A stretch of DNA of 64,000 bases. Source: an uncultured Clostridium sp. Lineage in GTDB: Bacteria > Bacillota > Clostridia > TANB77 > CAG-508. Shown piece after piece: positions 36,591 to 50,110 of this stretch; the stretch's first letter is position 1; the number at the start of each line of letters is the position of its first letter. The notes beneath the pieces were generated by a model. It was not told the DNA's origin. It searched no databases and was given only the letters and a program-made list of their open reading frames with translations. The stretch lies in the NCBI GenBank assembly GCA_947087745.1, contig CAMUDX010000002.1, positions 17,151 to 81,150 of the forward strand, given 5' to 3'. Made by a program: the position numbers and the translations under genes.

Positions 36591-37346
36591 CTATTTTCTA
36601 TCTTTAACATTTTCTGCTTGTTTTTCAACTTCATCTGGAGAATATAAATCAATAAGTGTTAAGATATATTTTCCAAATTCCTCGTTTGAAATTTCCAAGT
36701 TCCCTGTATGTTTTAGATATTCTCTTGCTACCATTCCATAAGATGCAATTTGATTTCTCGTAACAAATTCTGTTTTTTCTTCTATTCCCTCTCTATGTGG
36801 CACTTCTTTTTTGATTTTCTCTAAATCTATTCCTAATGAAATAATAAGAGCTTTATCTACTTTTCTCAATTCTCCAATATCTAAAGCACCTATATAATAT
36901 TTTAATCTTGATTTGTCTATTGCTCTGATTTGTTCTGTCAAAACAAGTGAATTTTGTTTTAGTCTATCTTTATACCCTTTTATATACACATGAGTTGGTA
37001 TAATCGATTTTGAATTTACTTTACTTGTTATTGGTGCAATTATAACAGTTGGACTATGCTCATTTCCTATATTGTTTTGCAATATTACTACTGGTCTTAC
37101 TCCTGTTTGTTCACTTCCTACATAAGTTTCGTCTAAAGCTGCATAATATAAATCTCCTCTTTTAATTTCCATTTTATTTCTATTCTCCTTTTTTTCTTTA
37201 TAATTTTTCAAATATTCCATTTGTTCTTGATCTTCCATTATTTTTTCTTCTTCTGTTTTACTCATACTCGCATATAGAATCATTAAATATGTAAATATTG
37301 TGATAAGTATAAGTAGTATTAAAAATATAATTAGTAAAATATTCAT
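36591..37346 (-). CDS. PemK/MazF-domain protein with N-terminal TM helix and C-terminal extension
   Basis: The core IKRGDLYYAALDETYVGSEQTGVRPVVILQNNIGNEHSPTVIIAPITS...LVLTEQIRAIDKSRL is a classical MazF/PemK fold. It is embedded in a 251-aa protein with a hydrophobic N-terminus. No obvious MazE partner ORF is present. Confidence 0.6.
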   Translation of the reverse strand: MNILLIIFLILLILITIFTYLMILYASMSKTEEEKIMEDQEQMEYLKNYKEKKENRNKMEIKRGDLYYAALDETYVGSEQTGVRPVVILQNNIGNEHSPTVIIAPITSKVNSKSIIPTHVYIKGYKDRLKQNSLVLTEQIRAIDKSRLKYYIGALDIGELRKVDKALIISLGIDLEKIKKEVPHREGIEEKTEFVTRNQIASYGMVAREYLKHTGNLEISNEEFGKYILTLIDLYSPDEVEKQAENVKDRK

Positions 37347-37750: not shown

Positions 37751-38275
37751 TTAAATTTTTATAAATTTTTTTAATTTTTCTAAAATTCTATCTCGTTTAT
37801 CTTGAATTGTAGTGTAATGTTTGCCTACTATTGCAGCATATTCTCGCAATGTTTTATTTTCAAAAAATAATGCTTTTATTAGTTTGTATTCTTCTTCACT
37901 TAATTGTAATAAAGCTAATCTTAATTTTTCTATTTCATTTTTTCTTTCAAAATTAGCTTCTACATTATCTATTGGATTTGAAATTATATTTTTTAATGTA
38001 GCTCCATTTTCAGTTTCATTATCATAAGAAACTAAATTCATCTTTCTTGATACTCTATCTAAATACTTCTGTCTTTGTTCCTCATACTCTATAATTTCAT
38101 AATCTTTTTTTGACACTTCTAGCAAAACATCATCCAATTTAATAAATTTTTTTTTCTTATATGTACTGTATTTTTTTCGTTTTTCTTTAAGTTCTTTATA
38201 TGTAATTTCTTCATAAATTCCTTTTTTTAATTTTATAAAACATTTTGCATTATCTTGCATTTCTCTTTCCTCCAA
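37751..38275 (-). CDS. sigma-70 region-4-containing sigma-factor-like protein (Tn916 Orf7-like)
   Basis: C-terminal LSEEEYKLIKALFFENKTLREYAAIVGKHYTTIQDKRDRILEKLKK is a sigma-70 region 4 HTH. Confidence 0.65.
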   Translation of the reverse strand: MEEREMQDNAKCFIKLKKGIYEEITYKELKEKRKKYSTYKKKKFIKLDDVLLEVSKKDYEIIEYEEQRQKYLDRVSRKMNLVSYDNETENGATLKNIISNPIDNVEANFERKNEIEKLRLALLQLSEEEYKLIKALFFENKTLREYAAIVGKHYTTIQDKRDRILEKLKKFIKI

Positions 38276-38815: not shown

Positions 38816-39535
38816 ATGCAGAAAGTCCTTATTGCTAATCCTAATGTTGAGCAAAGAATAAGGCTTTGTCAACAGCTTGCAAATGATAAAAGGTTAGAAG
38901 TAATAGAAACAGCTGATGGAAAAACTGCTTTAGAAAAATATCTTGATATTAAACCTAATGTATTAGTTTTAGATTCTTGCCTAAAAGATATAAATTGTAT
39001 TGAAATAATTGATAGATTATCTACAAATATTGCAGATAAGAAAAATAACAACATTATATTAACAGCTCAAAAAGAAGAAAATTTGAACTTGTCTAATGCT
39101 GCTAGAATATACAAGGTAATATATGATGATGAAAATTTTAATGACTTTTATAGTACAATTAACGAAATGTATCTTTTTGGAGAATATGAAGAATTAACTA
39201 ACGAGGAACTCGATTTATTATTTTTGACATTAAAAATTCCTTTAAATTCAAATGGAACTAATTACATAAGAGAAGCTATTTTTGAATGCTACTACTACCC
39301 TGACTTACAGAAAAAATTGAAAGATATTTTTACTATAATTGGACAAAGACATAACAAGCCTAATTCGGCAATACGATCAAGTTTTAGAACTGCATTAGAA
39401 CGATTAAATATGTATAGAGATACTATCAACTGCCCTATTATGCAATATTTTGATATTGAAGAAAATATAACCCCAAAAGATTTTTTAGAAATTGCAGTAA
39501 TGTATTTACATCTACAAAAAGGAAAGAAGAAATAA
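38816..39535 (+). CDS. Spo0A-like regulator (degenerate receiver domain plus Spo0A C-terminal DNA-binding domain)
   Basis: C-terminal NYIREAIFECYYYPDLQKKLKDIFTIIGQRHNKPNSAIRSSFRTALERLNMYRD...KDFLEIAV parallels the Spo0A_C signature (YLREAI...LYP.IA...T...VERAIRHAIE...PTNSEFIA). The N-terminal REC-like fold lacks the canonical acidic pocket (ANPN). Confidence 0.55.
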   Translation: MQKVLIANPNVEQRIRLCQQLANDKRLEVIETADGKTALEKYLDIKPNVLVLDSCLKDINCIEIIDRLSTNIADKKNNNIILTAQKEENLNLSNAARIYKVIYDDENFNDFYSTINEMYLFGEYEELTNEELDLLFLTLKIPLNSNGTNYIREAIFECYYYPDLQKKLKDIFTIIGQRHNKPNSAIRSSFRTALERLNMYRDTINCPIMQYFDIEENITPKDFLEIAVMYLHLQKGKKK

Positions 39536-39567: not shown

Positions 39568-40758
39568 TTATGCGTTCTCTTTTAATTCTTTATACCCTTG
39601 CATTATATTGTCTATTTCCATATTGTTTATTGGCTCTGATACAAATGTATTCAAATTTCTTCCCATTAGATTATATGCTGTTTTCATATATTCATCACTA
39701 ACATTATCACTTGTAATTATATTGAATATTGGCACATTATCTTTTAAACTTTTTTTTGATTTCCTCATTATTTCCATACTGTCCATATTGTCTAAATTCA
39801 TTTTTGCAAAAACCATTTCTGGCTTTGATTCTATAATTTTGTTATATGTTTCTTTTCCGTCTGCTGCTGTGTCTACTAATTCAACATAGTCTAAACCTTT
39901 TATTGTATCTGCTATTTTATTTCTTATTTCTTCGTTATTATGGGCAATTAGAATCTTTATCTTTTTCATTCTATTCTCCTCTAATTCATACATAAATTCT
40001 ACTGGATTTTGGTATAGTGCATTTCCCTTTTTTACATCTACACCATGTTCCGTTTTTATTATATCTCCATTTGCTATTAGCAAAGTATATTTATCTTCCA
40101 TGTCCTTTTCTTGTCTAAAGTCTGTTTCTCCTATATTTCCAAAATTTCTAAATACATTTTTAGTTTGCTCAAATTCTGTGTCTGTTATTGCAAATTCGTC
40201 TTTATTTTTCTCTGCTGTTTCTCGAAGTGGCATAAATTTAAAGAACTTCCACTTGCTAATATTATAATTGTTTAGGAACTCTCCTAGCTGCTCCATTTCA
40301 TTTATATTTTTCTTGCTAACTACTGTATTTATATTTACTTTAAGATTTTTGTCTTTAACATAGTCTAGTATAACTTTAACCTCTTCAAAATGATTTCTAC
40401 CTCTTCCTAGTTCTTCATTTGTATCATCATTTATTGTATCTAATGACAATGTCAAAGAATCTAAATAATCTAAAATCTCTCGCATATTTTCATTTTGTGC
40501 TAGTACCATTCCGTTTGTTATCAATTTATTCTTTATTCCATTTTCTTTTGATATTTTTAATAGTTCTTTTAAGTTTGGATATAGTAGTGCTTCTCCCCCT
40601 GTCCAAGTAATGTTGTTTACTCCATCTTTAATCAAATTATTTAATATCTCTTTATTTTCTTCATAAGTAAGATCGTTAATACCTAAAAATCTGTGGCAAT
40701 ATTTACAATTTTGATTACATTTTGTTGTAATATTCCAACAAACTCTCTTTTTTTGCAT
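39568..40758 (-). CDS. radical SAM enzyme fused to a C-terminal (pseudo-)receiver domain
   Basis: N-terminal CNQNCKYC (CxxxCxxC) with GGEALL. The C-terminal ~120 aa show a REC-like pattern (KIKILIAHNNEEI...MVFAKMNL...IITSDN) in which the phospho-acceptor Asp appears replaced. Confidence 0.65.
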   Translation of the reverse strand: MQKKRVCWNITTKCNQNCKYCHRFLGINDLTYEENKEILNNLIKDGVNNITWTGGEALLYPNLKELLKISKENGIKNKLITNGMVLAQNENMREILDYLDSLTLSLDTINDDTNEELGRGRNHFEEVKVILDYVKDKNLKVNINTVVSKKNINEMEQLGEFLNNYNISKWKFFKFMPLRETAEKNKDEFAITDTEFEQTKNVFRNFGNIGETDFRQEKDMEDKYTLLIANGDIIKTEHGVDVKKGNALYQNPVEFMYELEENRMKKIKILIAHNNEEIRNKIADTIKGLDYVELVDTAADGKETYNKIIESKPEMVFAKMNLDNMDSMEIMRKSKKSLKDNVPIFNIITSDNVSDEYMKTAYNLMGRNLNTFVSEPINNMEIDNIMQGYKELKENA

Positions 40759-40921: not shown

Positions 40922-41815
40922 TTACTTATTTTTTAAGTATTTCTTTATAAATTTTTTATCTACTTGTGTTAGCATATCTTTTATATATACTAAATTTATA
41001 CTCAACTCTGGCAATTCTATTGGCAATTCAACTTCGTATAATTCTCCATTTTCTAATTGCTTCTTGACAGCTTCTTTCATTACATAAGCTATTCCTAATC
41101 CATTCATTACAGCTTCTACTCTTATTTCTGTTGTATCACATTTCATATTTGGTTTTATTTTTATTTTGTGTTCTTTTAGAACTTTAAATAAATTTTTAGT
41201 AGAATTTGTATTGTCAAAATTTAATATATATCGTAAATCTTCTAGTTCTTTTACATCTTCAATTTTTAGTGGCTCTTTCGCAACAAATATATTGCTTACT
41301 TTCTTTAATTCTTCTATTACAATTCCATCTGTTTCTGTTGGTATAACATCTGTTATTACAAAATCCAATTTATGATTCTTTAACATCTCAAACATTTCAT
41401 TTGGAACTGCACCACAAGTTAACTCTACATTTAAGTTTGGATAATCATTTTTAGCTGCTTTTATATATTCCATTAAGTAATAGTTCGTTAAGTGTGATTG
41501 ACACCCTATATTTACTGTGCCATTAGCTAAATCATTTTTTTCTTTTATTACTTTTTCTGCAAAATCAAATGAAGAAATACTTTTATTTACAATTTCAAAT
41601 AATTGCTTTCCCTCTTCTGTTAATTTTACTCCATCATTTTCTCTATTAAATAGTTTTACATCTAGTTGTTTTTCTAAATTTTTTATCTGTGTACTAATAT
41701 TAGCTGAAGTAAAACCTAGTTTTTCGCCTGCTTCTGCATAACTTTTAGAATTTGCTACTGCACAAAATATTCTATACAGATTATAATTTATGTTAGACAT
41801 AATAGCACCTCTCAA
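40922..41815 (-). CDS. LysR-family transcriptional regulator
   Basis: N-terminal HTH (YAEAGEKLGFTSANISTQIKNLEKQLDVKLF) and a C-terminal substrate-binding domain. Confidence 0.85.
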   Translation of the reverse strand: MRGAIMSNINYNLYRIFCAVANSKSYAEAGEKLGFTSANISTQIKNLEKQLDVKLFNRENDGVKLTEEGKQLFEIVNKSISSFDFAEKVIKEKNDLANGTVNIGCQSHLTNYYLMEYIKAAKNDYPNLNVELTCGAVPNEMFEMLKNHKLDFVITDVIPTETDGIVIEELKKVSNIFVAKEPLKIEDVKELEDLRYILNFDNTNSTKNLFKVLKEHKIKIKPNMKCDTTEIRVEAVMNGLGIAYVMKEAVKKQLENGELYEVELPIELPELSINLVYIKDMLTQVDKKFIKKYLKNK

Positions 41816-41887
41816 TCGCTATTATTGTATCATATTATGTAAATAAAGTAAAGAGTTTTGCCCTATTTCTAGGCAAAACTCCATGTA

Positions 41888-42946
41888 TTATTTGTTATTT
41901 TGTTTTGAATATAATAAATCTGCTTTTCTAATATCAAACTTTGTTCCAATTTTTAGGTTAAGTGTTTTTACAAATTCTATTAGCTGTTCTATATTTTGTT
42001 CTGCATTTTCTACTTTCTTTACTTCTAGCTCTATAAATATTCCTAAATCTTTAACATCTTGAATATATGCTATAAACTCATCATTCTCATACATATAATT
42101 TTTATCAATCATATTTAAAAATCTTGTATAACCTAATATATTCAAATGCTTTTCTGCTTCTTCTATGCTCATAACTTTTAATACAGACTTTTCTGTACTT
42201 ATCTCAAACCCATTGCTATTATGATTTCTTCTTTTACAAACTATCTTTTTGTCATCTTCATTAACATATCTAATAATTAGTGTATCTGTAATTCTTCCAT
42301 TTTTAGGTGCAAATTCATTAGTTCTATCATTTTTCATATATATATCATCTAATGTAAATTCTTCTATATATTTGAATCCTTTTTCTTCTAAAACTTTAAC
42401 AATAGTTGATATTTCTTCAAAGACTTCACAAGTTATTTCTATATCTTTTATAAACTTTGTTTCTTTTTTATCACTATCATATATTCCTACTTTTTCTTCT
42501 AATAGTTTAAAATTACAACTTATATCCACAAAAAATTTCTTTTTATCTACTGTTACCATTTTATATAATTTCTTTGCCACATTTCTTATTTTTTCTGTAT
42601 TTTGTTGTATAAAATTGTTTTGTGCCATTAACAAGTTTTTATATTTAATATCTTTAATTAAATTAAAATCTATTGGTGTTAGTACATCTCCTACAACTGG
42701 AATCATATTATTGAATCTAATAATTCCATAGTCTTGTCCTATTTTTATGTATGTTGGATTATCACTATATTTTTTGTGTGTACTTTTAGGCGAGAATAAA
42801 GGTGCAAAATATTTGATATTATCTATCTCAATAATAACACCTATATATGGTCTTTTTTGATTTTTATTGTATGGAACTTTATCATCAAATTGATATAAAT
42901 AATCAATATATTTATCATCTATGTTATAAAATTTTAATCTATCCAT
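41888..42946 (-). CDS. type III toxin-antitoxin ToxN/AbiQ-family endoribonuclease fused to a C-terminal CYTH-like domain
   Basis: Residues 1-~160 align with AbiQ/ToxN (KFYNIDDKYIDYLYQFDDKVP...YIGVIIEIDNIKYFAPLFSPK...CNFKLLEEK vs AbiQ KFYTISSKYIEYLKEFDDKVP...FIGIVLEIQGHKYLAPLTSPK...CDFSLLEEK). The following ~190 aa have a CYTH/CyaB-like pattern (LIIRYV...KRR...E...LGYTRF...DLGIFIELEV). Start at MDRLKFYN, with an AAGGAGAG RBS. Confidence 0.7.
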   Translation of the reverse strand: MDRLKFYNIDDKYIDYLYQFDDKVPYNKNQKRPYIGVIIEIDNIKYFAPLFSPKSTHKKYSDNPTYIKIGQDYGIIRFNNMIPVVGDVLTPIDFNLIKDIKYKNLLMAQNNFIQQNTEKIRNVAKKLYKMVTVDKKKFFVDISCNFKLLEEKVGIYDSDKKETKFIKDIEITCEVFEEISTIVKVLEEKGFKYIEEFTLDDIYMKNDRTNEFAPKNGRITDTLIIRYVNEDDKKIVCKRRNHNSNGFEISTEKSVLKVMSIEEAEKHLNILGYTRFLNMIDKNYMYENDEFIAYIQDVKDLGIFIELEVKKVENAEQNIEQLIEFVKTLNLKIGTKFDIRKADLLYSKQNNK

Positions 42947-42965
42947 ATTCTCTCCTTTAACAAAA

Positions 42966-43000
42966 ATTGTGGGATGCTTATATAAAAACACCCCACATAG
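42966..43000 (-). terminator. hairpin between the ToxI-like repeats and the toxin gene (attenuator/terminator typical of type III TA loci)
   Basis: tgtggg(a)tg...ca(c)cccaca imperfect inverted repeat, placed exactly where ToxIN and AbiQ loci carry a terminator. Confidence 0.5.
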
Positions 43001-43007
43001 TTTTTAT

Positions 43008-43116
43008 CGCTTACTTAGGGCTAAGCTACTCCCATTTTTTATCTTCACTTAGGGCTTGAATACTCCCATTTTTTATTGTCAACTTTTGGCTTGACTACTC
43101 CCATTTGAAAATATTT
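43008..43116 (-). ncRNA. ToxI-like antitoxin RNA: three tandem ~36-nt repeats upstream of the ToxN-family gene
   Basis: Direct repeats ttacttagggctaagctactcccattttttatc / ttcacttagggcttgaatactcccattttttattgtc / aacttttggcttgactactcccatttgaaaatattt, with no interspersed spacers. Confidence 0.65.
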
Positions 43117-43141
43117 GCATATTTTCTTTGTTAGTATATTC

Positions 43142-43170
43142 ATTATACACTATTTTTATGCTATTGTCAA
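43142..43170 (-). promoter_or_regulatory. consensus sigma-70 promoter (TTGACA-17-TATAAT) driving the ToxI-like repeats and the toxin
   Basis: The minus strand reads TTGACAatagcataaaaatagtgTATAAT, about 25 nt upstream of the first repeat. Confidence 0.7.
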
Positions 43171-43227
43171 ACACAAAAATTACAAATTTTCTACATTTTT
43201 TATAAAAACAAGTCTGTTTCTAACTCT

Positions 43228-44742
43228 TTATCTGTCTATATCATCCATAGAACTACTTTTATCAATTTGATGTAATTGTTCTAATTGTTTTTCTGTAATA
43301 TTTATTACTTTACCACAACAAGGTTTAAAATCTTTATTTCCATAAACGAGCCAAATAATATTTTCTCTTTTTAGATCTTCCTTTGGCATAGTTCCAGGAC
43401 AAGGATAACCATCAGTAAAAACAATTTTGTTTATTTCTCTTTTTTTAGTAAATGATCTAACTGCTAAATCCCAATCTTCTGTCCATGCTGAATGTCCTCT
43501 AGCTCCTCTAGGTATAGTAAAATTATCTATGTCTTTTACATTTTTTATATCTACAAGTCCCCAAAATTGCTCATTAAAGCATCCTACTCTTAGTTTTGAT
43601 TGTTCTAATAATGGTTTTAGTTGCCTTAGAAATGATTTTACTAATTCTAAATCTACTGAGCCAGAAACATCAATCATAACTTCTGTTTCAGCTTCATCTT
43701 CAATATCATTTTCTTCTAATCTATATGCATAATTATTTTCTGCAATAGAACGCCTTTGACTCCAAATTGTTTCTGTTTTTTCTACTTCTCTTCGTAATAA
43801 AAGTTTCCAATCAATTTCTTCTTTACTTTTTCCTATATCCCCTAATTCTATTGTTCCTTTATCGGTACTTCGTATATCTTTTTCAGTCTTTTCGCGTCTA
43901 GATTTGAATTTTTCTCGTTTTTCTTTTCTATTATCTTCAAATTCTCCTTTTTCATCAAAATCTATATCTGTATGTTCTTCTCCAGTTTGCTCTTGTTCTT
44001 GTCCCTGTTCTTGTTTTTGCGAATTTTCATCTTGCCTTTGTCCTTTCTTTTGAGAATTTTGCTGCTCTTTAAATGCTTCTTCCCATAAACTATGGTCATC
44101 TCCTTGACTTTTACTTTTATCTGAATTTTGATTTTCAGTTTGCTCCGCATTTTCATTATTACTATCTTGTTCTTGATTTTGCTCATTGCCTTGTTTATTA
44201 TCTTGTTCATCGCTCTGTCCACTTCCTTGCTGATTATCTTGCTCTTGTTCTTGTCCATCTCCTTGTTCTTGGTCTTGGTTTTGATTTTGATTATTCTTTT
44301 GCTCTTGTTCTTTCTTTTCTTTTTCTTGCAATAATTTTTGATAAAATTCTTCTGCTGAATAATCTAGTGCTTCTGGCATGTTTACATATCCTTCTTTAAT
44401 TGTAAATCCATCTCTTTCTAAATTTGCATTTATAATAGCATCAGTTGCTATATTCCAAAGTTCTGGATCTCTTTTTACTCCACTTTTATCCTTTAATCTA
44501 TACATGTGCATAAATTTTATATGCATTATTTCATGTGCTATTGTAAATAATCTATCATTCTCACTTAAACTTGCAAAATAGTTAGGATCAACATATATAT
44601 TTTTTCCATCAGTTGCTGCTGTATGATATTTCAAGTTGTCTTTAAATTCAATATTAGCTACTGCTATTTCACTACCAAATCTAGGATATTTTGCTAGCAT
44701 TTTCCTTTTTGCATCATAAATCAAATCTGTATTAGCACTCAT
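43228..44742 (-). CDS. DUF2201-type protein: N-terminal putative metallopeptidase (HExxH) domain, acidic Q/E/K-rich linker, C-terminal VWA-like domain
   Basis: TIAHEIMHIKFMH (HExxH) in the N domain; a long low-complexity QEQEQ/KEKREK linker; a C-terminal VWA-like region (MIDVSGSVD). This is the usual partner of MoxR/AAA_5 ATPases. Confidence 0.7.
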   Translation of the reverse strand: MSANTDLIYDAKRKMLAKYPRFGSEIAVANIEFKDNLKYHTAATDGKNIYVDPNYFASLSENDRLFTIAHEIMHIKFMHMYRLKDKSGVKRDPELWNIATDAIINANLERDGFTIKEGYVNMPEALDYSAEEFYQKLLQEKEKKEQEQKNNQNQNQDQEQGDGQEQEQDNQQGSGQSDEQDNKQGNEQNQEQDSNNENAEQTENQNSDKSKSQGDDHSLWEEAFKEQQNSQKKGQRQDENSQKQEQGQEQEQTGEEHTDIDFDEKGEFEDNRKEKREKFKSRREKTEKDIRSTDKGTIELGDIGKSKEEIDWKLLLRREVEKTETIWSQRRSIAENNYAYRLEENDIEDEAETEVMIDVSGSVDLELVKSFLRQLKPLLEQSKLRVGCFNEQFWGLVDIKNVKDIDNFTIPRGARGHSAWTEDWDLAVRSFTKKREINKIVFTDGYPCPGTMPKEDLKRENIIWLVYGNKDFKPCCGKVINITEKQLEQLHQIDKSSSMDDIDR

Positions 44743-44792
44743 TTATATGCTTCTCCTCTCTAAAAATTAACTACCATAATTTTTATGGCTAA

Positions 44793-47018
44793 TTATTCTC
44801 TTTCATGTTCTTCATTCATAACTTCTTTAGAAACTCTTGTTAAATACGAACTATACATTTGTCCTATATCTGTATATGCTGCTATTCCATCTTTTGCATA
44901 TTCTTCTGTTTCTTTTCCTGTATGTAATGCTAAAGACATTTCTTGCAGTTCACTTATTTTCTCCATCTTTCTTTCATCATTTCCAGCCCAATATATATCA
45001 TATATTGATAAATATTCTGGATCACAATGTTTTCTTATGAATTCTCTACAACTTTCTACTTGTGTTTCATCTGCTGTTATCAATGCTGTCATATATGCAA
45101 ATCTTTCGCTTATATCTCTTGGTAAGTCTGCTTGTGTATATCCTTCTCCCATTCCTTTTGTTACTTCTTCTGGAGTCAATGTTGGAAGGTTATAAAAATC
45201 AAAAAATTCTGCTGACCATTCTTCTCTAAGTTTTGAGCTTATTGACCTTTGGATTATATCTTCTACATCTTTTCCTTCATATTTTCCTTGTTCCAAATTT
45301 CTTTCAAAATTATATAAGGTATTTGAAATTGATGTCCAACCACGAGGATCGTTTGTTCTTCCTTTACATCCATTTCTATCTAAATGTTCTTCTCCTACAT
45401 CTGGCTCTTCGTAGAAATATCCTATGTCTTGTATATCTTCGCTTTTTCCAGAATTGTTGTATTTTGATAACATATATCCTATTACTGATGGGTGTATTTT
45501 TTGTGGAATTGCATATTCTGTTATCCATTCTCCTACTTTTGGCTCCATATCTAGGATATGGTCAAATCTTTTTTCTAGTGGCTCTGCTAAATCTTCTGCT
45601 ACACTTGAATATTTCTTTTGGTTTCCTGTTGCTACAACTACTACATTGTCTGGTAATTTTAGTCCTTTTCCTATCTCTACCATTCTATTTAATACTAATG
45701 TATATACTAAACTTTGAACTGCTGGTTTTACATTTAAAAGCTCATCTAACATTATTACAACTTTTTTATCGCTTTCTTTTGACCTTTCATATACTGTATC
45801 TGCTACATCATATATATTTTGTATATTTTCTTCAACTAATTTTCTTTCTTCTTCTGTTGCTTCTTGCATAATAGCTGTTTTTGCAAAGTCTGGTGGTATG
45901 CTTTGTCCTGTTTGTAAATTTACTGATCCTACCACTTTTTCTGGGAACATGTTATTTGTTAATTTCATATAAATTAAGTCTGGATATAATGTTTTTATTC
46001 TTTCTGTTTTTCCTATTCCAGATGGTCCTCTTAATAATACTGACTCTCCTGCTTCAATCCAATTTTGTATTATTTCTGTATCTGTCATTCTGCTTCTATC
46101 AGCAGTTTTTGTTTTGTCTGGATTTAATTTTTGTAATCTAGATTTTCTTGGCTTAAATTCTTCTGTTTCTTCTGTTTGCTCTCCTAATGTTATTGTACCT
46201 CTTGATTGTTCTAAATCTCTTGCCAAATATCTATCCATAAATGTTTTTATATCTGTTTTATCAAAATCTCTTGTATGATAATTACTCTCTTTATTAAATT
46301 GAACTCCTGCAAATATTAGTTTTTCAGTTATCATCATACGAGATTTTTCATCTACAATCCATTTAACTGGAGAAACTTCTATCCATACATTATCTCCATC
46401 TTTATATTGTTCTCCATTTGAAAGTGTAAAGTTACTTCCATCATAATATGAATTAGCTTCAACTCTTACATATCTTTTTCCATTATATTCATATTCTTGA
46501 TGAGTTTGTGGCTCAAATGTTGTATCATATTCAGTGTATCGTGTTGAATCTGTTGTATAACTATTTCTTGTTTTTGAAAGTCTGCCACTTTTATATTCTC
46601 TTTCTAATTTTTCTTGCATCTCTTTTGATACTGCTTTTTGTGGATAATATCCATACTCTACTTCAAGAATACCATCTCTTGCTCTTTTCCCACTCTCTCC
46701 GTTCGTGGGGATATTAGAGATTGATGAGAACGGCAAAGCTGGGCGAGCCCCACCATTGCGAGTGTTAACATTGTAGTAATCGCTATCACCACTATCGTAA
46801 ACCACGCGCGCGTCATTATCTCCGTCATCTGACTTTGTCCAATACCAACCTGTTCTCCCCTCTAAAGAACTATCATTATCTACATGATAATCAGAAACCC
46901 ATCCACCAAGCAATACAGAAAAATCTGTTATGGCTGCCTGTGTTCCTCTTTTTTCTAATATATCTAATTTATCATTACCAAAGCATTGTTCTTCGGTTAA
47001 AAAAGTAAAATTACTCAT
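44793..47018 (-). CDS. DGR target protein 1: N-terminal C-type-lectin/DUF1566-like variable domain (contains VR1) fused to a MoxR/AAA_5-type AAA+ ATPase
   Basis: VR1 (46739-46816) encodes residues ~68-93. The upstream segment (LTEEQ...GRTGWYWTKSDD...ARVV...RNGGARPAL) resembles short CLec/DUF1566 folds. Walker A VLLRGPSGIGKTERI, Walker B VVIMLDELLN and an AAA_5-like sensor region. No signal peptide. Confidence 0.8.
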   Translation of the reverse strand: MSNFTFLTEEQCFGNDKLDILEKRGTQAAITDFSVLLGGWVSDYHVDNDSSLEGRTGWYWTKSDDGDNDARVVYDSGDSDYYNVNTRNGGARPALPFSSISNIPTNGESGKRARDGILEVEYGYYPQKAVSKEMQEKLEREYKSGRLSKTRNSYTTDSTRYTEYDTTFEPQTHQEYEYNGKRYVRVEANSYYDGSNFTLSNGEQYKDGDNVWIEVSPVKWIVDEKSRMMITEKLIFAGVQFNKESNYHTRDFDKTDIKTFMDRYLARDLEQSRGTITLGEQTEETEEFKPRKSRLQKLNPDKTKTADRSRMTDTEIIQNWIEAGESVLLRGPSGIGKTERIKTLYPDLIYMKLTNNMFPEKVVGSVNLQTGQSIPPDFAKTAIMQEATEEERKLVEENIQNIYDVADTVYERSKESDKKVVIMLDELLNVKPAVQSLVYTLVLNRMVEIGKGLKLPDNVVVVATGNQKKYSSVAEDLAEPLEKRFDHILDMEPKVGEWITEYAIPQKIHPSVIGYMLSKYNNSGKSEDIQDIGYFYEEPDVGEEHLDRNGCKGRTNDPRGWTSISNTLYNFERNLEQGKYEGKDVEDIIQRSISSKLREEWSAEFFDFYNLPTLTPEEVTKGMGEGYTQADLPRDISERFAYMTALITADETQVESCREFIRKHCDPEYLSIYDIYWAGNDERKMEKISELQEMSLALHTGKETEEYAKDGIAAYTDIGQMYSSYLTRVSKEVMNEEHERE
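46739..46816 (-). other. DGR variable repeat VR1
   Basis: 78 bp; 70/78 identical to the TR. All 8 mismatches fall at TR positions that are A on the coding (minus) strand. Flanked by GC-rich clamps (gacgcgcgcgtgg ... ggtggggctcgcccag). Confidence 0.9.
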
Positions 47019-47057
47019 ATACTACTCCCTTATATTTCTTATGCTAATTACTGTAGC

Positions 47058-47423
47058 TTAAAATGCAATAACACAGAAATTATATAGCTCCTTTGAAATG
47101 TTTTTTAATCCTTCTCTATCTTTAACAGTTAAAACTACAATCATATCTTTTGGTAATTTATATCCATAAAATTCTCTATCTTTAACTATTTGATAATATT
47201 TATTTTGTGTACTTTCATTCAATTTGTCTATTTCAGATATAATAAAATAATCAAGTTCTTCTTTATTAGAGATTTTCTCTTTAAAAATTGTAAGCAATTC
47301 ACTATCATTAGAATCAGCATTCACAATAATTTTTGAATCTAATTCTTTACAATCTTCATTTTGTATTACAACACAGGTAGCAAGGCATCCTTTTTGTAAT
47401 TCTATCAATTCTTTATTAATCAT
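47058..47423 (-). CDS. hypothetical protein (121 aa) between the two DGR target genes
   Basis: ORF only; no motif recognised. Confidence 0.35.
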   Translation of the reverse strand: MINKELIELQKGCLATCVVIQNEDCKELDSKIIVNADSNDSELLTIFKEKISNKEELDYFIISEIDKLNESTQNKYYQIVKDREFYGYKLPKDMIVVLTVKDREGLKNISKELYNFCVIAF

Positions 47424-47424
47424 A

Positions 47425-47901
47425 TTAAATTTTATCCCCTTTCGTAATACTAAAAAAACTCAATATTTTATTAAGAAACTTTTTTAATATATTTTCTTTT
47501 TTATATTCTACTATATTTTTTTCTATCACATTTTCATTTTGAATTATTTTATTTTCTTTTTTGTTTTTAAAAATATCATTTACATTATATGTTTCTTTTA
47601 TTTTTTCTTTTTTCATATTGTTTTCATGTATTATATTTTTATATTTTTCATGTTCTTCTTTATTACACCACCATGTAATATATATAAAGCCTAAAAGTTC
47701 TTTAGTTTGTTTTCTTAAATTAAAGCCATTGATTGGCTGTTCATGATTAAATTTAGATTTATAGCTTTTACTTGAAATATCAGTTAAAAACTTTATAAAA
47801 CTTTGTGGTATTCTTGCAACATCTTCTTTATTTGTATGATTTAGTATGTCTAATACTTCAACTGCTGCTTCACTATATTCAGCTTCTCTCATTTTCTTCA
47901 C
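47425..47901 (-). CDS. hypothetical protein (158 aa) between the two DGR target genes
   Basis: ORF only; its start overlaps the end of target gene 2 by 23 nt. Confidence 0.35.
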   Translation of the reverse strand: MKKMREAEYSEAAVEVLDILNHTNKEDVARIPQSFIKFLTDISSKSYKSKFNHEQPINGFNLRKQTKELLGFIYITWWCNKEEHEKYKNIIHENNMKKEKIKETYNVNDIFKNKKENKIIQNENVIEKNIVEYKKENILKKFLNKILSFFSITKGDKI

Positions 47902-50110
47902 TCCTAACTTCTTCTTTAGAATCTCTTGTTAAATACGAACTATACATTTGTCCTATATCTGTATATGCTGCTATTCCATCTTTTGCATATTCTTCTGTTT
48001 CTTTTCCTGTATGTAATGCTAAAGACATTTCTTGCAGTTCACTTATTTTCTCCATCTTTCTTTCATCATTTCCAGCCCAATATATATCATATATTGATAA
48101 ATATTCTGGATCACAATGTTTTCTTATGAATTCTCTACAACTTTCTACTTGTGTTTCATCTGCTGTTATCAATGCTGTCATATATGCAAATCTTTCGCTT
48201 ATATCTCTTGGTAAGTCTGCTTGTGTATATCCTTCTCCCATTCCTTTTGTTACTTCTTCTGGAGTCAATGTTGGAAGGTTATAAAAATCAAAAAATTCTG
48301 CTGACCATTCTTCTCTAAGTTTTGAGCTTATTGACCTTTGGATTATATCTTCTACATCTTTTCCTTCATATTTTCCTTGTTCCAAATTTCTTTCAAAATT
48401 ATATAAGGTATTTGAAATTGATGTCCAACCACGAGGATCGTTTGTTCTTCCTTTACATCCATTTCTATCTAAATGTTCTTCTCCTACATCTGGCTCTTCG
48501 TAGAAATATCCTATGTCTTGTATATCTTCGCTTTTTCCAGAATTGTTGTATTTTGATAACATATATCCTATTACTGATGGGTGTATTTTTTGTGGAATTG
48601 CATATTCTGTTATCCATTCTCCTACTTTTGGCTCCATATCTAGGATATGGTCAAATCTTTTTTCTAGTGGCTCTGCTAAATCTTCTGCTACACTTGAATA
48701 TTTCTTTTGGTTTCCTGTTGCTACAACTACTACATTGTCTGGTAATTTTAGTCCTTTTCCTATCTCTACCATTCTATTTAATACTAATGTATATACTAAA
48801 CTTTGAACTGCTGGTTTTACATTTAAAAGCTCATCTAACATTATTACAACTTTTTTATCGCTTTCTTTTGACCTTTCATATACTGTATCTGCTACATCAT
48901 ATATATTTTGTATATTTTCTTCAACTAATTTTCTTTCTTCTTCTGTTGCTTCTTGCATAATAGCTGTTTTTGCAAAGTCTGGTGGTATGCTTTGTCCTGT
49001 TTGTAAATTTACTGATCCTACCACTTTTTCTGGGAACATGTTATTTGTTAATTTCATATAAATTAAGTCTGGATATAATGTTTTTATTCTTTCTGTTTTT
49101 CCTATTCCAGATGGTCCTCTTAATAATACTGACTCTCCTGCTTCAATCCAATTTTGTATTATTTCTGTATCTGTCATTCTGCTTCTATCAGCAGTTTTTG
49201 TTTTGTCTGGATTTAATTTTTGTAATCTAGATTTTCTTGGCTTAAATTCTTCTGTTTCTTCTGTTTGTTCTCCTAAAGTTATTGTACCTCTTGACTGTTC
49301 TAAATCTCTTGACAAGTATCTATCCATAAATGTTTTTATATCTGTTTTATCAAAGTCTTTGGTATGGTAATCTCTAGTATGATTAAATTGTACTCCAGAG
49401 AATATCAATTTATCTGTTAGCATGACTTTTTCTCTTTCATCAACTAACCATTTTACAGGAGAAACTTCTACCCATACATTATCTCCATCTCTGTATTGTT
49501 CTCCATTTGAAAGTGTAAATCTATTTCCTCCAAAATCTGAATTAGCTTCAACTCTTACATATCTTTTACCATTATATTCATATTCTTCATGTTGTTTTGC
49601 TAAAAATTTTTCGCCATAAGCATCATATTTTCTTGAATCTGTTGTATAACTATTTCTTGTTTTGGATATACTACCACTTCTATATGCTCTTTCTAGTCTT
49701 TCTTGCATGTCTTTTGATGCTGCTTTTTGTGGGTAATATCCATACTCTACTTCAAGAATACCATCTCTTGCTCTTTTCCCACTCTCTCCGTTCGTGGGGA
49801 TATTAGAGATTGATGAGAACGGCAAAGCTGGGCGAGCCCCACCATCGCGAGTGAGAACATGGGAGCAATGCCTATGACCATTATCGTTAACCACGCGCGC
49901 GTCATTATCTCCATCATCTGATTTTGTCCAATAATATCCTGTTCTTCCCTCCAAAGAACTATCATTATCTATATGATTGTTGTCAGAAACATAAGCACCT
50001 AAAAGAATAGAGAAATCTGTTATTGCTGCTTTTGTTCCTCTCTTCTCTAATATATCTAATTTATCACTTCCAAAATATTGTTCTTCGGTTAAAAAAGTAA
50101 AATTACTCAT
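47879..50110 (-). CDS. DGR target protein 2 (paralog of 44793..47018; contains VR2)
   Basis: Same architecture as target 1. VR2 encodes ...DARVVNDNGHRHCSHVLTRDGGARP..., versus TR-encoded DARVVNDNGNRNYNNVNKRNGGARP. Confidence 0.8.
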   Translation of the reverse strand: MSNFTFLTEEQYFGSDKLDILEKRGTKAAITDFSILLGAYVSDNNHIDNDSSLEGRTGYYWTKSDDGDNDARVVNDNGHRHCSHVLTRDGGARPALPFSSISNIPTNGESGKRARDGILEVEYGYYPQKAASKDMQERLERAYRSGSISKTRNSYTTDSRKYDAYGEKFLAKQHEEYEYNGKRYVRVEANSDFGGNRFTLSNGEQYRDGDNVWVEVSPVKWLVDEREKVMLTDKLIFSGVQFNHTRDYHTKDFDKTDIKTFMDRYLSRDLEQSRGTITLGEQTEETEEFKPRKSRLQKLNPDKTKTADRSRMTDTEIIQNWIEAGESVLLRGPSGIGKTERIKTLYPDLIYMKLTNNMFPEKVVGSVNLQTGQSIPPDFAKTAIMQEATEEERKLVEENIQNIYDVADTVYERSKESDKKVVIMLDELLNVKPAVQSLVYTLVLNRMVEIGKGLKLPDNVVVVATGNQKKYSSVAEDLAEPLEKRFDHILDMEPKVGEWITEYAIPQKIHPSVIGYMLSKYNNSGKSEDIQDIGYFYEEPDVGEEHLDRNGCKGRTNDPRGWTSISNTLYNFERNLEQGKYEGKDVEDIIQRSISSKLREEWSAEFFDFYNLPTLTPEEVTKGMGEGYTQADLPRDISERFAYMTALITADETQVESCREFIRKHCDPEYLSIYDIYWAGNDERKMEKISELQEMSLALHTGKETEEYAKDGIAAYTDIGQMYSSYLTRDSKEEVRSEENERS
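47905..49320. repeat. ~1.4-kb segment 100% identical to 44819-46230 (tandem duplication / gene conversion between the two DGR target genes); approximate extent
   Basis: Identical antisense ORF pairs (44837..45040 = 47926..48129; 45233..45871 = 48322..48960; 45881..46141 = 48970..49230) and identical C-terminal ~480 aa of the two target proteins. The N-terminal ~260 aa are only ~75% identical. Confidence 0.85.
49828..49905 (-). other. DGR variable repeat VR2
   Basis: 78 bp; 12 mismatches to the TR, all at TR coding-strand adenines; same GC-rich flanks as VR1. Confidence 0.9.

Follow-up and report, generated by a model that had tools for sequence, protein, structure and literature searches.

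The window analysed here is a 64,000-nucleotide (nt) stretch of DNA from an uncultured Clostridium sp. (contig CAMUDX010000002.1 of assembly GCA_947087745.1). On its minus strand, between positions 41888 and 43170, it carries a type III toxin-antitoxin locus in which a promoter, an array of three toxI-like RNA repeats and a terminator precede one open reading frame (ORF) of 352 residues. This ORF joins, in frame, a ToxN endoribonuclease domain to a divergent domain of the CYTH / triphosphate tunnel metalloenzyme (TTM) superfamily. From sequence comparison and structural models, we think it fairly probable that the locus is a working type III toxin-antitoxin or abortive-infection module of the ToxIN family whose toxin is this fusion, the CYTH half being kept by selection and perhaps binding a ligand. 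ToxIN itself is known. What is new here is the first multi-domain type III toxin family, as far as the searchable literature goes, and the exchange of toxin cassettes in frame.

The whole module, including promoter, repeats, terminator and ORF, is read from the minus strand. Related loci carry one of three classes of toxI-ToxN cassette, described below, two of which are called classes B and C. The sigma-70-type promoter (43142-43170) is formed by the -35 box TTGACA (43170-43165) and the -10 box TATAAT (43147-43142) separated by a 17-nt spacer. It matches the consensus at 12 of 12 positions, is the sole such match within 41700-43400, and is 83-93% conserved even between loci whose toxI and ToxN are only about 60% identical. 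After the transcription start and ahead of the array comes a small 5' leader hairpin (43107-43126), found in both the minimum-free-energy and the centroid folds; it occupies the same place in every cassette class, with a sequence that differs by class. The toxI-like array (43003-43106) is followed by an intrinsic terminator or attenuator (42958-42997) made of a 12-base-pair stem (hairpin 42997-42968) and a T run, and all cassette classes have an equivalent hairpin. A ribosome-binding site GGAGAG (42950-42955), read from the sequence, ends 3 nt before the ATG of the fusion ORF (41888-42946, stop codon included). A mechanical ORF list begins 15 codons earlier, at GTG 42991 inside the hairpin; the start is instead ATG 42946, and homologues begin MDRLKF or MERLKF. 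The ORF contains no internal stop and no frameshift. A second intrinsic terminator (41852-41882) follows its stop codon, indicating that the locus is a transcription unit of its own; two intrinsic terminators were found at the locus against 0.3 expected.

An earlier sequence-only reading of this DNA had described the perfect promoter, three tandem direct repeats of about 36 nt, a hairpin between repeats and ORF, a ToxN-family ORF after that hairpin and an uninterrupted frame across its two halves. All of these were borne out, with repeat units of 34-35 nt. Type III loci have been defined by a toxin gene with a short palindromic terminator directly upstream, a tandem repeat array and a -35/-10 promoter at the start of the repeats (PMC3401426). 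The window shows every sequence element in the definition of Blower et al. 2012 (PMC3401426): promoter, tandem repeats and terminator, in this order, ahead of a gene for a ToxN homologue. Since the fusion ORF is found again with promoter, three repeats and terminator in 20 species-representative genomes, and the repeat hairpin shows compensatory changes, these features go beyond chance.

Tandem Repeats Finder reported the array at 43001-43106 with a period of 35, 3.1 copies, 81% matches and a score of 103. The three units (43106-43072, 43071-43038 and 43037-43003) each consist of a hairpin of 4-5 base pairs with a GCCnnAAG loop, plus an A-rich spacer, and every intact homologous locus has three repeats. 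For the hairpin, 19 distinct units of 36 nt, taken from the window and from related loci, were compared. The stem (columns 12-15 with 26-29) is paired in 96.1% of cases and all 4 of its pairs show compensatory changes on both sides; none of 500 shuffles reached the observed value, and slid controls stayed at or below 62%. The loop is invariant across these units. A candidate pseudoknot stem GG...CC is invariant too, which places it outside the reach of covariation. Folding of the array and leader RNA is more stable than that of shuffled controls (z -4.45). The third repeat matches the Rfam ToxI model (RF02519) over its full length, in register with the repeats, at 19.3 bits, for a gathering threshold of 50; the scores in class C are 23.8 and 20.9 bits, and Rfam ToxI matched no class B repeat. 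We read the match of the window repeats, being below threshold, as resemblance only. The repeat type co-varies with the ToxN class.

The ToxN/AbiQ endoribonuclease domain (residues 4-154, 42485-42937) was identified by Pfam ToxN_toxin (PF13958, E 1.8e-44). Its closest sequence match in the PDB is ToxN of B. thuringiensis (4ato, 2e-22), followed among others by those of P. atrosepticum (2xd0) and E. coli (7d8o). The likeness to AbiQ emphasised by the sequence-only reading holds insofar as AbiQ is matched (4glk, 3e-17) and PADLOC files the domain as AbiQ (E 1.2e-46), but B. thuringiensis ToxN is somewhat closer. The fold of the domain agrees with ToxN structures at a Foldseek template modelling score (TM) of 0.80, the aligned part being 32-36% identical. 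The active site of E. coli ToxN comprises Lys33, Thr52, Ser53 and Lys55 (PMC8860590), to which Arg32, Phe51, Ser52 and Lys54 of the window protein correspond in the alignment. The change of Lys33 to Arg is a natural variation among ToxN clusters, and Thr52Val kills E. coli ToxN (PMC8860590).

The remaining half of the protein (residues ~168-352, 41891-42445) had been described in the sequence-only reading as a CYTH-like pattern. The fold is confirmed and the domain is divergent. It matches NCBIfam TIGR00318 cyaB with an E-value of 5.6e-9 but at 36 bits, for a cutoff of 58, and a profile built from 18 homologous C-terminal domains matches the Sulfolobus triphosphatase SaTTM (E 9.5e-7). AlphaFold2 predicted the domain alone with a predicted local distance difference test score (pLDDT) of 93.8 and a predicted template modelling score (pTM) of 0.87. 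This half of the protein has the eight-stranded tunnel fold of the CYTH / TTM superfamily, not an unrelated one, and a Foldseek match to 7ns9 (E 1.8e-12, TM 0.82). Neither the window protein nor its C-terminal half matched Pfam CYTH (PF01928), and a Pfam hit of that half to Cdc37_C (E 0.21) was set aside as spurious. Pfam alone would have wrongly dismissed the CYTH assignment, which was settled by the structure together with the NCBIfam and PDB profiles. Relatives grade into Pfam CYTH, with 21.5 bits for protein P0049, 28.9 for P0084 and 52.8 for P0226. A profile search of the full database returned 605 cluster representatives at E <=1e-3, mostly stand-alone proteins of ~190 residues with the same E-I-T motif.

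We mapped the CYTH motifs by alignment to SaTTM, by the columns invariant in the subfamily and by the rules of Vogt et al. (PMC8233210). The ExExK hallmark reads D168-I-E170-I-T172. In place of the Lys stands a Thr that is invariant, as is the Cys after it; the first acidic residue differs between members of the subfamily. The RxR strand is reduced to a single Arg. D201-I-Y203 (DxY) and E306/E308 (FIELE, ExE) are invariant and align to DIY and EIE of SaTTM, and the basic tunnel residues R226, K238, R240 and K253 are invariant across the subfamily. The substituting residues (Thr, Cys, Gln, Asn-Tyr) are themselves invariant, which suggests a redefined active or binding site instead of decay; on this evidence the domain appears to be a divergent triphosphate-tunnel domain with a redefined tunnel. 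The same residues bear on the idea that CYTH is a catalytically dead scaffold, for example a dimerisation module altering the quaternary assembly of ToxN and toxI. The loss of the ExExK Lys to Thr and of one Arg of RxR would fit it, as would the facts that CYTH proteins are typically dimers (PMC8233210) and that the quaternary organisation of type III systems is known to vary (PMC4627078). A dead domain would nevertheless hardly keep ExE, DxY, the four basic tunnel residues and the substituted positions all invariant, and we consider it improbable. Class IV adenylate cyclases carry an HFxxxxExExK extension and ExA instead of ExE (PMC8233210). Here no His-Phe pair stands at positions -6/-5 (sequence KETKFIKDIEIT) and ExE still has its second Glu, so that by these rules the domain is not cyclase-like. 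An adenylate-cyclase or second-messenger reading of the domain was rejected on these motifs, and the coupling to second messengers that the sequence-only reading had suggested is not favoured.

The fusion is not peculiar to the window. Public collections already contain the exact 352-residue protein: its 90% cluster has 137 sequences, two sister clusters have 128 and 31, and the entries bear the sole name 'ToxN/AbiQ family toxin'. The fusion is intact on hundreds of contigs. A scan of species-representative genomes gave 31 loci, all from uncultured Clostridia or Clostridium metagenome-assembled genomes (MAGs) of mouse, rabbit or human gut: 20 intact fusions (352-364 residues), 6 stand-alone CYTH genes, 1 internal deletion and 4 loci cut by contig ends. 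The locus had no match in phage and plasmid DNA collections, and IMG/VR viral contigs held no relative of the CYTH domain; we thus have no evidence of a phage or plasmid origin. Our literature search found nothing relevant pairing ToxN with CYTH, CYTH with viperin or CYTH with anti-phage activity, and the 2012 survey of type III systems mentions no fusions (PMC3401426). The ToxN-CYTH fusion is thus common in gut metagenomes yet apparently undescribed. The sequence-only reading was right that the toxin bears a real extra domain; what it took for an unusual elaboration is a widespread, unannotated family.

Both halves are under purifying selection. The ratio of non-synonymous to synonymous substitution rates (dN/dS) is 0.09-0.22 for the CYTH domain, fused or stand-alone alike; ToxN compared within a class gives 0.04-0.20. 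One might suspect an error of assembly or sequencing, or a pseudogene in decay, because decayed variants exist elsewhere (the internal deletion of locus L030; the rearranged proteins P0059, P0056 and P0038) and contigs often break inside the repeats. This explanation is effectively refuted, and we give it a negligible chance: many independent contigs and MAGs carry the identical ORF, dN/dS is 0.04-0.22 over the two domains, and promoter, repeats and terminator are intact. The sequencing error that the sequence-only reading had named as the possible source of the joined frame is rejected on the same grounds. Rearranged or decayed variants were seen at L030 (5881-6480) and in proteins P0059, P0056, P0038 and P0061. 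The types observed are an in-frame deletion that starts near ToxN residue 18 and ends near CYTH residue 35 (L030), ToxN joined to a LysR substrate domain with CYTH deleted, ToxN with 15 residues of CYTH and an unrelated tail of 150 residues, and a window-type ToxN cut at residue ~137 by a phage-integrase gene.

Comparison of related MAGs revealed how the two halves came together. In many of them the CYTH, LysR, radical SAM-receiver, Spo0A-like and MazF genes are 95-100% identical to those of the window, and the ToxN falls into three discrete classes with ~100%, ~63% and ~46.5% identity to the window's. Each class comes with its own repeat type, always in three copies. Between the window and L006, DNA identity is 83-93% in the promoter, falls to ~50-70% over 43130-42471 (repeats, ToxN and linker) and returns to 93-98% from 42470 onward, placing a recombination breakpoint at the 3' end of the linker. 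In the tree of CYTH domains the three ToxN classes and the stand-alone forms are interleaved. Unfused class-B ToxN toxins exist (163-165 residues, 70-88% identity, same promoter type), and at one of these loci (P0271/L044), which has the same promoter and leader type, the toxin ends 3 residues past the point where the fusion linker starts. Stand-alone CYTH genes (L031-L036) have their own promoter and no repeats; others (L003, L030) keep a decaying toxI leader, indicating that ToxN was deleted there. The class identities set against a near-constant CYTH, the interleaved tree, the unfused class-B toxins and the stand-alone CYTH genes together show that CYTH was originally an independent resident gene, and that promoter, toxI and ToxN form a mobile head, open to exchange, that has been joined to its 5' end. 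Different cassettes are exchanged in frame by recombination between promoter and linker. At L044 (2850-3000) the unfused class-B toxIN lies upstream of rnpA-yidC-jag and has one toxI repeat in the assembly, which may reflect a genuine antitoxin of one repeat or a repeat array that collapsed in assembly.

The same ToxN clade is also fused in frame to a CN-hydrolase, an ATP-grasp fragment, a DUF1653 protein and a histidine phosphatase (loci L037, L038 and L039 of proteins P0063, P0065 and P0070, and protein P0062). The toxI repeats lie upstream in the three loci that were fetched, L037-L039. In P0063 the resident enzyme retains its own Met after a linker of 5 residues. The fusion of ToxN to such unrelated genes indicates that these cassettes are generally prone to read-through fusion with the gene that follows them. 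This raises the possibility, which we judge real if doubtful, that the ToxN-CYTH fusion is a passive by-product: mobile toxIN cassettes would land upstream of resident genes, lose their stop and read through, while CYTH does a ToxN-independent job that may belong with the neighbouring LysR/viperin-like cluster, its frame being kept as the sole route of expression and toxIN remaining a conventional abortive-infection or addiction module. These other fusions are the main argument for it. The stand-alone CYTH genes with promoters of their own in the same neighbourhood (L031, L034, L035, L047), the canonical ToxN that stops just past the linker start, the ToxN-deleted derivatives that keep CYTH under a toxI leader, the equal constraint on fused and free CYTH and the lack of a predicted interdomain interface point the same way. 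A mere accident is harder to reconcile with a fusion maintained by three ToxN classes with linkers of different length, and far more abundant and longer-lived than the other fusions of ToxN. Moreover, none of the scanned species-representative loci has ToxN and CYTH adjacent but split by a stop and restart.

The model of the full-length protein has a pLDDT of 90.2, with both domains above 90, and a pTM of 0.55. The domains are joined by a flexible linker (residues ~155-167, 42446-42484) in which pLDDT dips to 67-74 within a low-confidence region at ~155-170, and whose length and sequence vary between cassette classes. AlphaFold2 gave no confident packing between the domains, so that physical coupling is unsupported. 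The CYTH domain is under selection and flexibly tethered, and probably still metal- and ligand-binding; we suggest a role for it in ToxN function only tentatively.

Several observations weigh against a working ToxIN module with a functionally partnered CYTH domain. On the toxin side, the equivalent of the catalytic Thr52 is Phe in the window protein and Tyr in class B, and on the RNA side the repeats score 19-24 bits against the Rfam threshold of 50, or are unmatched in class B. On the CYTH side, Pfam is silent, the ExExK hallmark is incomplete and the predicted packing at a pTM of 0.55 is not confident. ToxN has been lost repeatedly with CYTH kept (L003, L030), and the other ToxN fusions fit opportunistic read-through better than a dedicated partnership.

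The locus grammar, the RNA hairpin and the co-variation of cognate RNA and toxin are shown by sequence and comparison; for the excess of RNA, its self-processing and the steps of inhibition and release we infer from the biology of the family (PMC3401426, PMC4627078, PMC8860590). The strong promoter would transcribe the three-repeat toxI array, and the terminator would pass only a fraction of transcripts on to the toxin ORF, leaving antitoxin RNA in excess. ToxN would cut the precursor in the A-rich spacers into hairpin or pseudoknot units of ~35 nt, and these processed units would bind ToxN and keep it inactive. Upon a shut-off of transcription, for instance by a phage, the labile RNA would decay and ToxN would degrade cellular and phage RNA. 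With low certainty, the tethered CYTH domain, which keeps DxY and ExE, may still bind metal and a triphosphate-type ligand with a specificity altered by the change of Lys to Thr and the loss of one tunnel Arg. Equally uncertainly, it could modulate the toxin in response to its ligand or contribute a second activity delivered together with ToxN.

Downstream of the fusion, the window carries a LysR-family regulator (40922-41815, minus strand; Pfam HTH_1 and LysR_substrate), a neighbour of the CYTH subfamily conserved by synteny. Next comes a viperin-like radical SAM enzyme fused to a C-terminal receiver (REC) domain (39568-40758, minus strand; Pfam Radical_SAM and Response_reg). PADLOC matched its product to pVip (E 1.9e-44), and NCBIfam viperin_w_prok, at 136.5 bits for a cutoff of 180, is by far its best radical SAM match. 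The receiver domain is atypical for prokaryotic viperin, and we found no paper pairing the two. An orphan Spo0A-like regulator (38816-39535, plus strand; weak REC and Spo0A_C) is divergent from the viperin-like gene, and a sigma-70/ECF-like factor (extracytoplasmic function; 37751-38275, minus strand) follows; related MAGs retain the two together with the LysR/pVip-REC block. Farther on lies a MazF/PemK-family toxin of 251 residues (36591-37346, minus strand), with an N-terminal extension of ~60 residues and extra C-terminal sequence, 100% conserved in sister MAGs.

Close relatives mostly have the LysR regulator and the viperin-like fusion as neighbours. The order of LysR, pVip-REC and Spo0A-like regulator is kept in relatives whose LysR identity drops to 43-47% (L029, L031, L035, L047). 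L034 has a different arrangement of CYTH, an unknown gene, then pVip without REC. The neighbourhood is absent from the close relatives L001, L033, L036 and L041, and no LysR or pVip gene lies beside the distant CYTH relatives (22-30% identity). A general functional link between CYTH and viperin was set aside because the neighbours are missing in these distant and some close relatives; we regard the neighbourhood as a lineage-restricted synteny and such a link only as a hypothesis. The stand-alone CYTH gene of this subfamily at L033 (4899-7246) has two flanking genes, one for a P-loop protein resembling cytidylate kinase and one for a radical SAM protein not classed as pVip by PADLOC, an arrangement reminiscent of kinase-viperin pairs. 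It is unlikely, in our view, that CYTH senses or processes a nucleotide or triphosphate, gates ToxN and is functionally linked to the viperin-like radical SAM-receiver enzyme, whose modified nucleoside triphosphate product it might, for example, bind or hydrolyse. Were this true, the island would combine two layers of defence, with a small-molecule signal controlling an RNA-antitoxin system. A wider form of this unlikely reading would have gut Clostridia equip resident enzymes with interchangeable toxIN cassettes, each a plug-in toxic head under RNA control.

Directly upstream of the toxIN promoter lies a gene for a DUF2201_N putative metallopeptidase with a long low-complexity linker rich in Q/E/N/D (43228-44742, minus strand) and, beyond it, genes for two paralogous AAA_5 (MoxR/dynein-like) ATPases of 741 and 743 residues (44793-47018 and 47879-50110; block 43228-50110, minus strand). 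This block is present in the sister MAGs of L014, L016, L017, L020 and L025, and other DNA takes its place in those of L006 and L021, so that the toxIN promoter marks the edge of a variable region.

Type III toxins have hitherto been viewed as single-domain ribonucleases of ~170 residues controlled by RNA alone, and a conserved second domain shows that such a toxin can be elaborated. The ToxN-CYTH family would offer a handle on what, besides RNA decay, modulates the activation of ToxN. With three ToxN/toxI classes, and a null allele besides, ahead of a nearly identical CYTH, cassette exchange is a natural experiment in the co-evolution of cognate RNA and protein and in diversifying selection on a defence module. 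The CYTH subfamily itself, with its apparently redefined DxExT tunnel and mostly below Pfam detection, would be an uncharacterised branch of a superfamily acting on triphosphates.

Compared with the ToxIN systems of B. thuringiensis (4ATO), P. atrosepticum (2XD0) and E. coli (7D8O), the window locus shares the gene order of promoter, tandem 34-36-nt repeats, terminator and ToxN, the conserved APLxSxK active-site strand and the ToxN fold, and it has about three repeats like the B. thuringiensis system. It differs from them in the length of its toxin (352 residues versus 163-194), the C-terminal CYTH domain, the Phe in place of Thr52, an RNA below the Rfam threshold and the swapping of toxI-ToxN in frame against a fixed C-terminal domain. 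With AbiQ/antiQ of Lactococcus lactis (4GLK) it has in common the PADLOC class, a Firmicute origin, few repeats and a presumed role in abortive infection; AbiQ is single-domain, whereas the window toxin has two domains and a sequence match to AbiQ weaker than to B. thuringiensis ToxN. Stand-alone CYTH/TTM proteins such as SaTTM (7NS8), PH1012 (2DC4), PH1819 (2EEN) and CyaB (2FJT, 3N0Z) resemble the C-terminal half in keeping DxY and ExE and in a size of ~185 residues. Unlike them, this half has DxExT, a single Arg of RxR and no HF, scores below the Pfam and NCBIfam thresholds and is joined to a ribonuclease toxin. A further comparison is with the unfused class-B ToxIN of gut Clostridia (P0271, GCA_949744505.1), which has the same promoter type, leader hairpin, repeat type and terminator and a ToxN 85% identical to that of the class-B fusions, but whose toxin stops at 165 residues and whose downstream genes (rnpA-yidC-jag) are unrelated.

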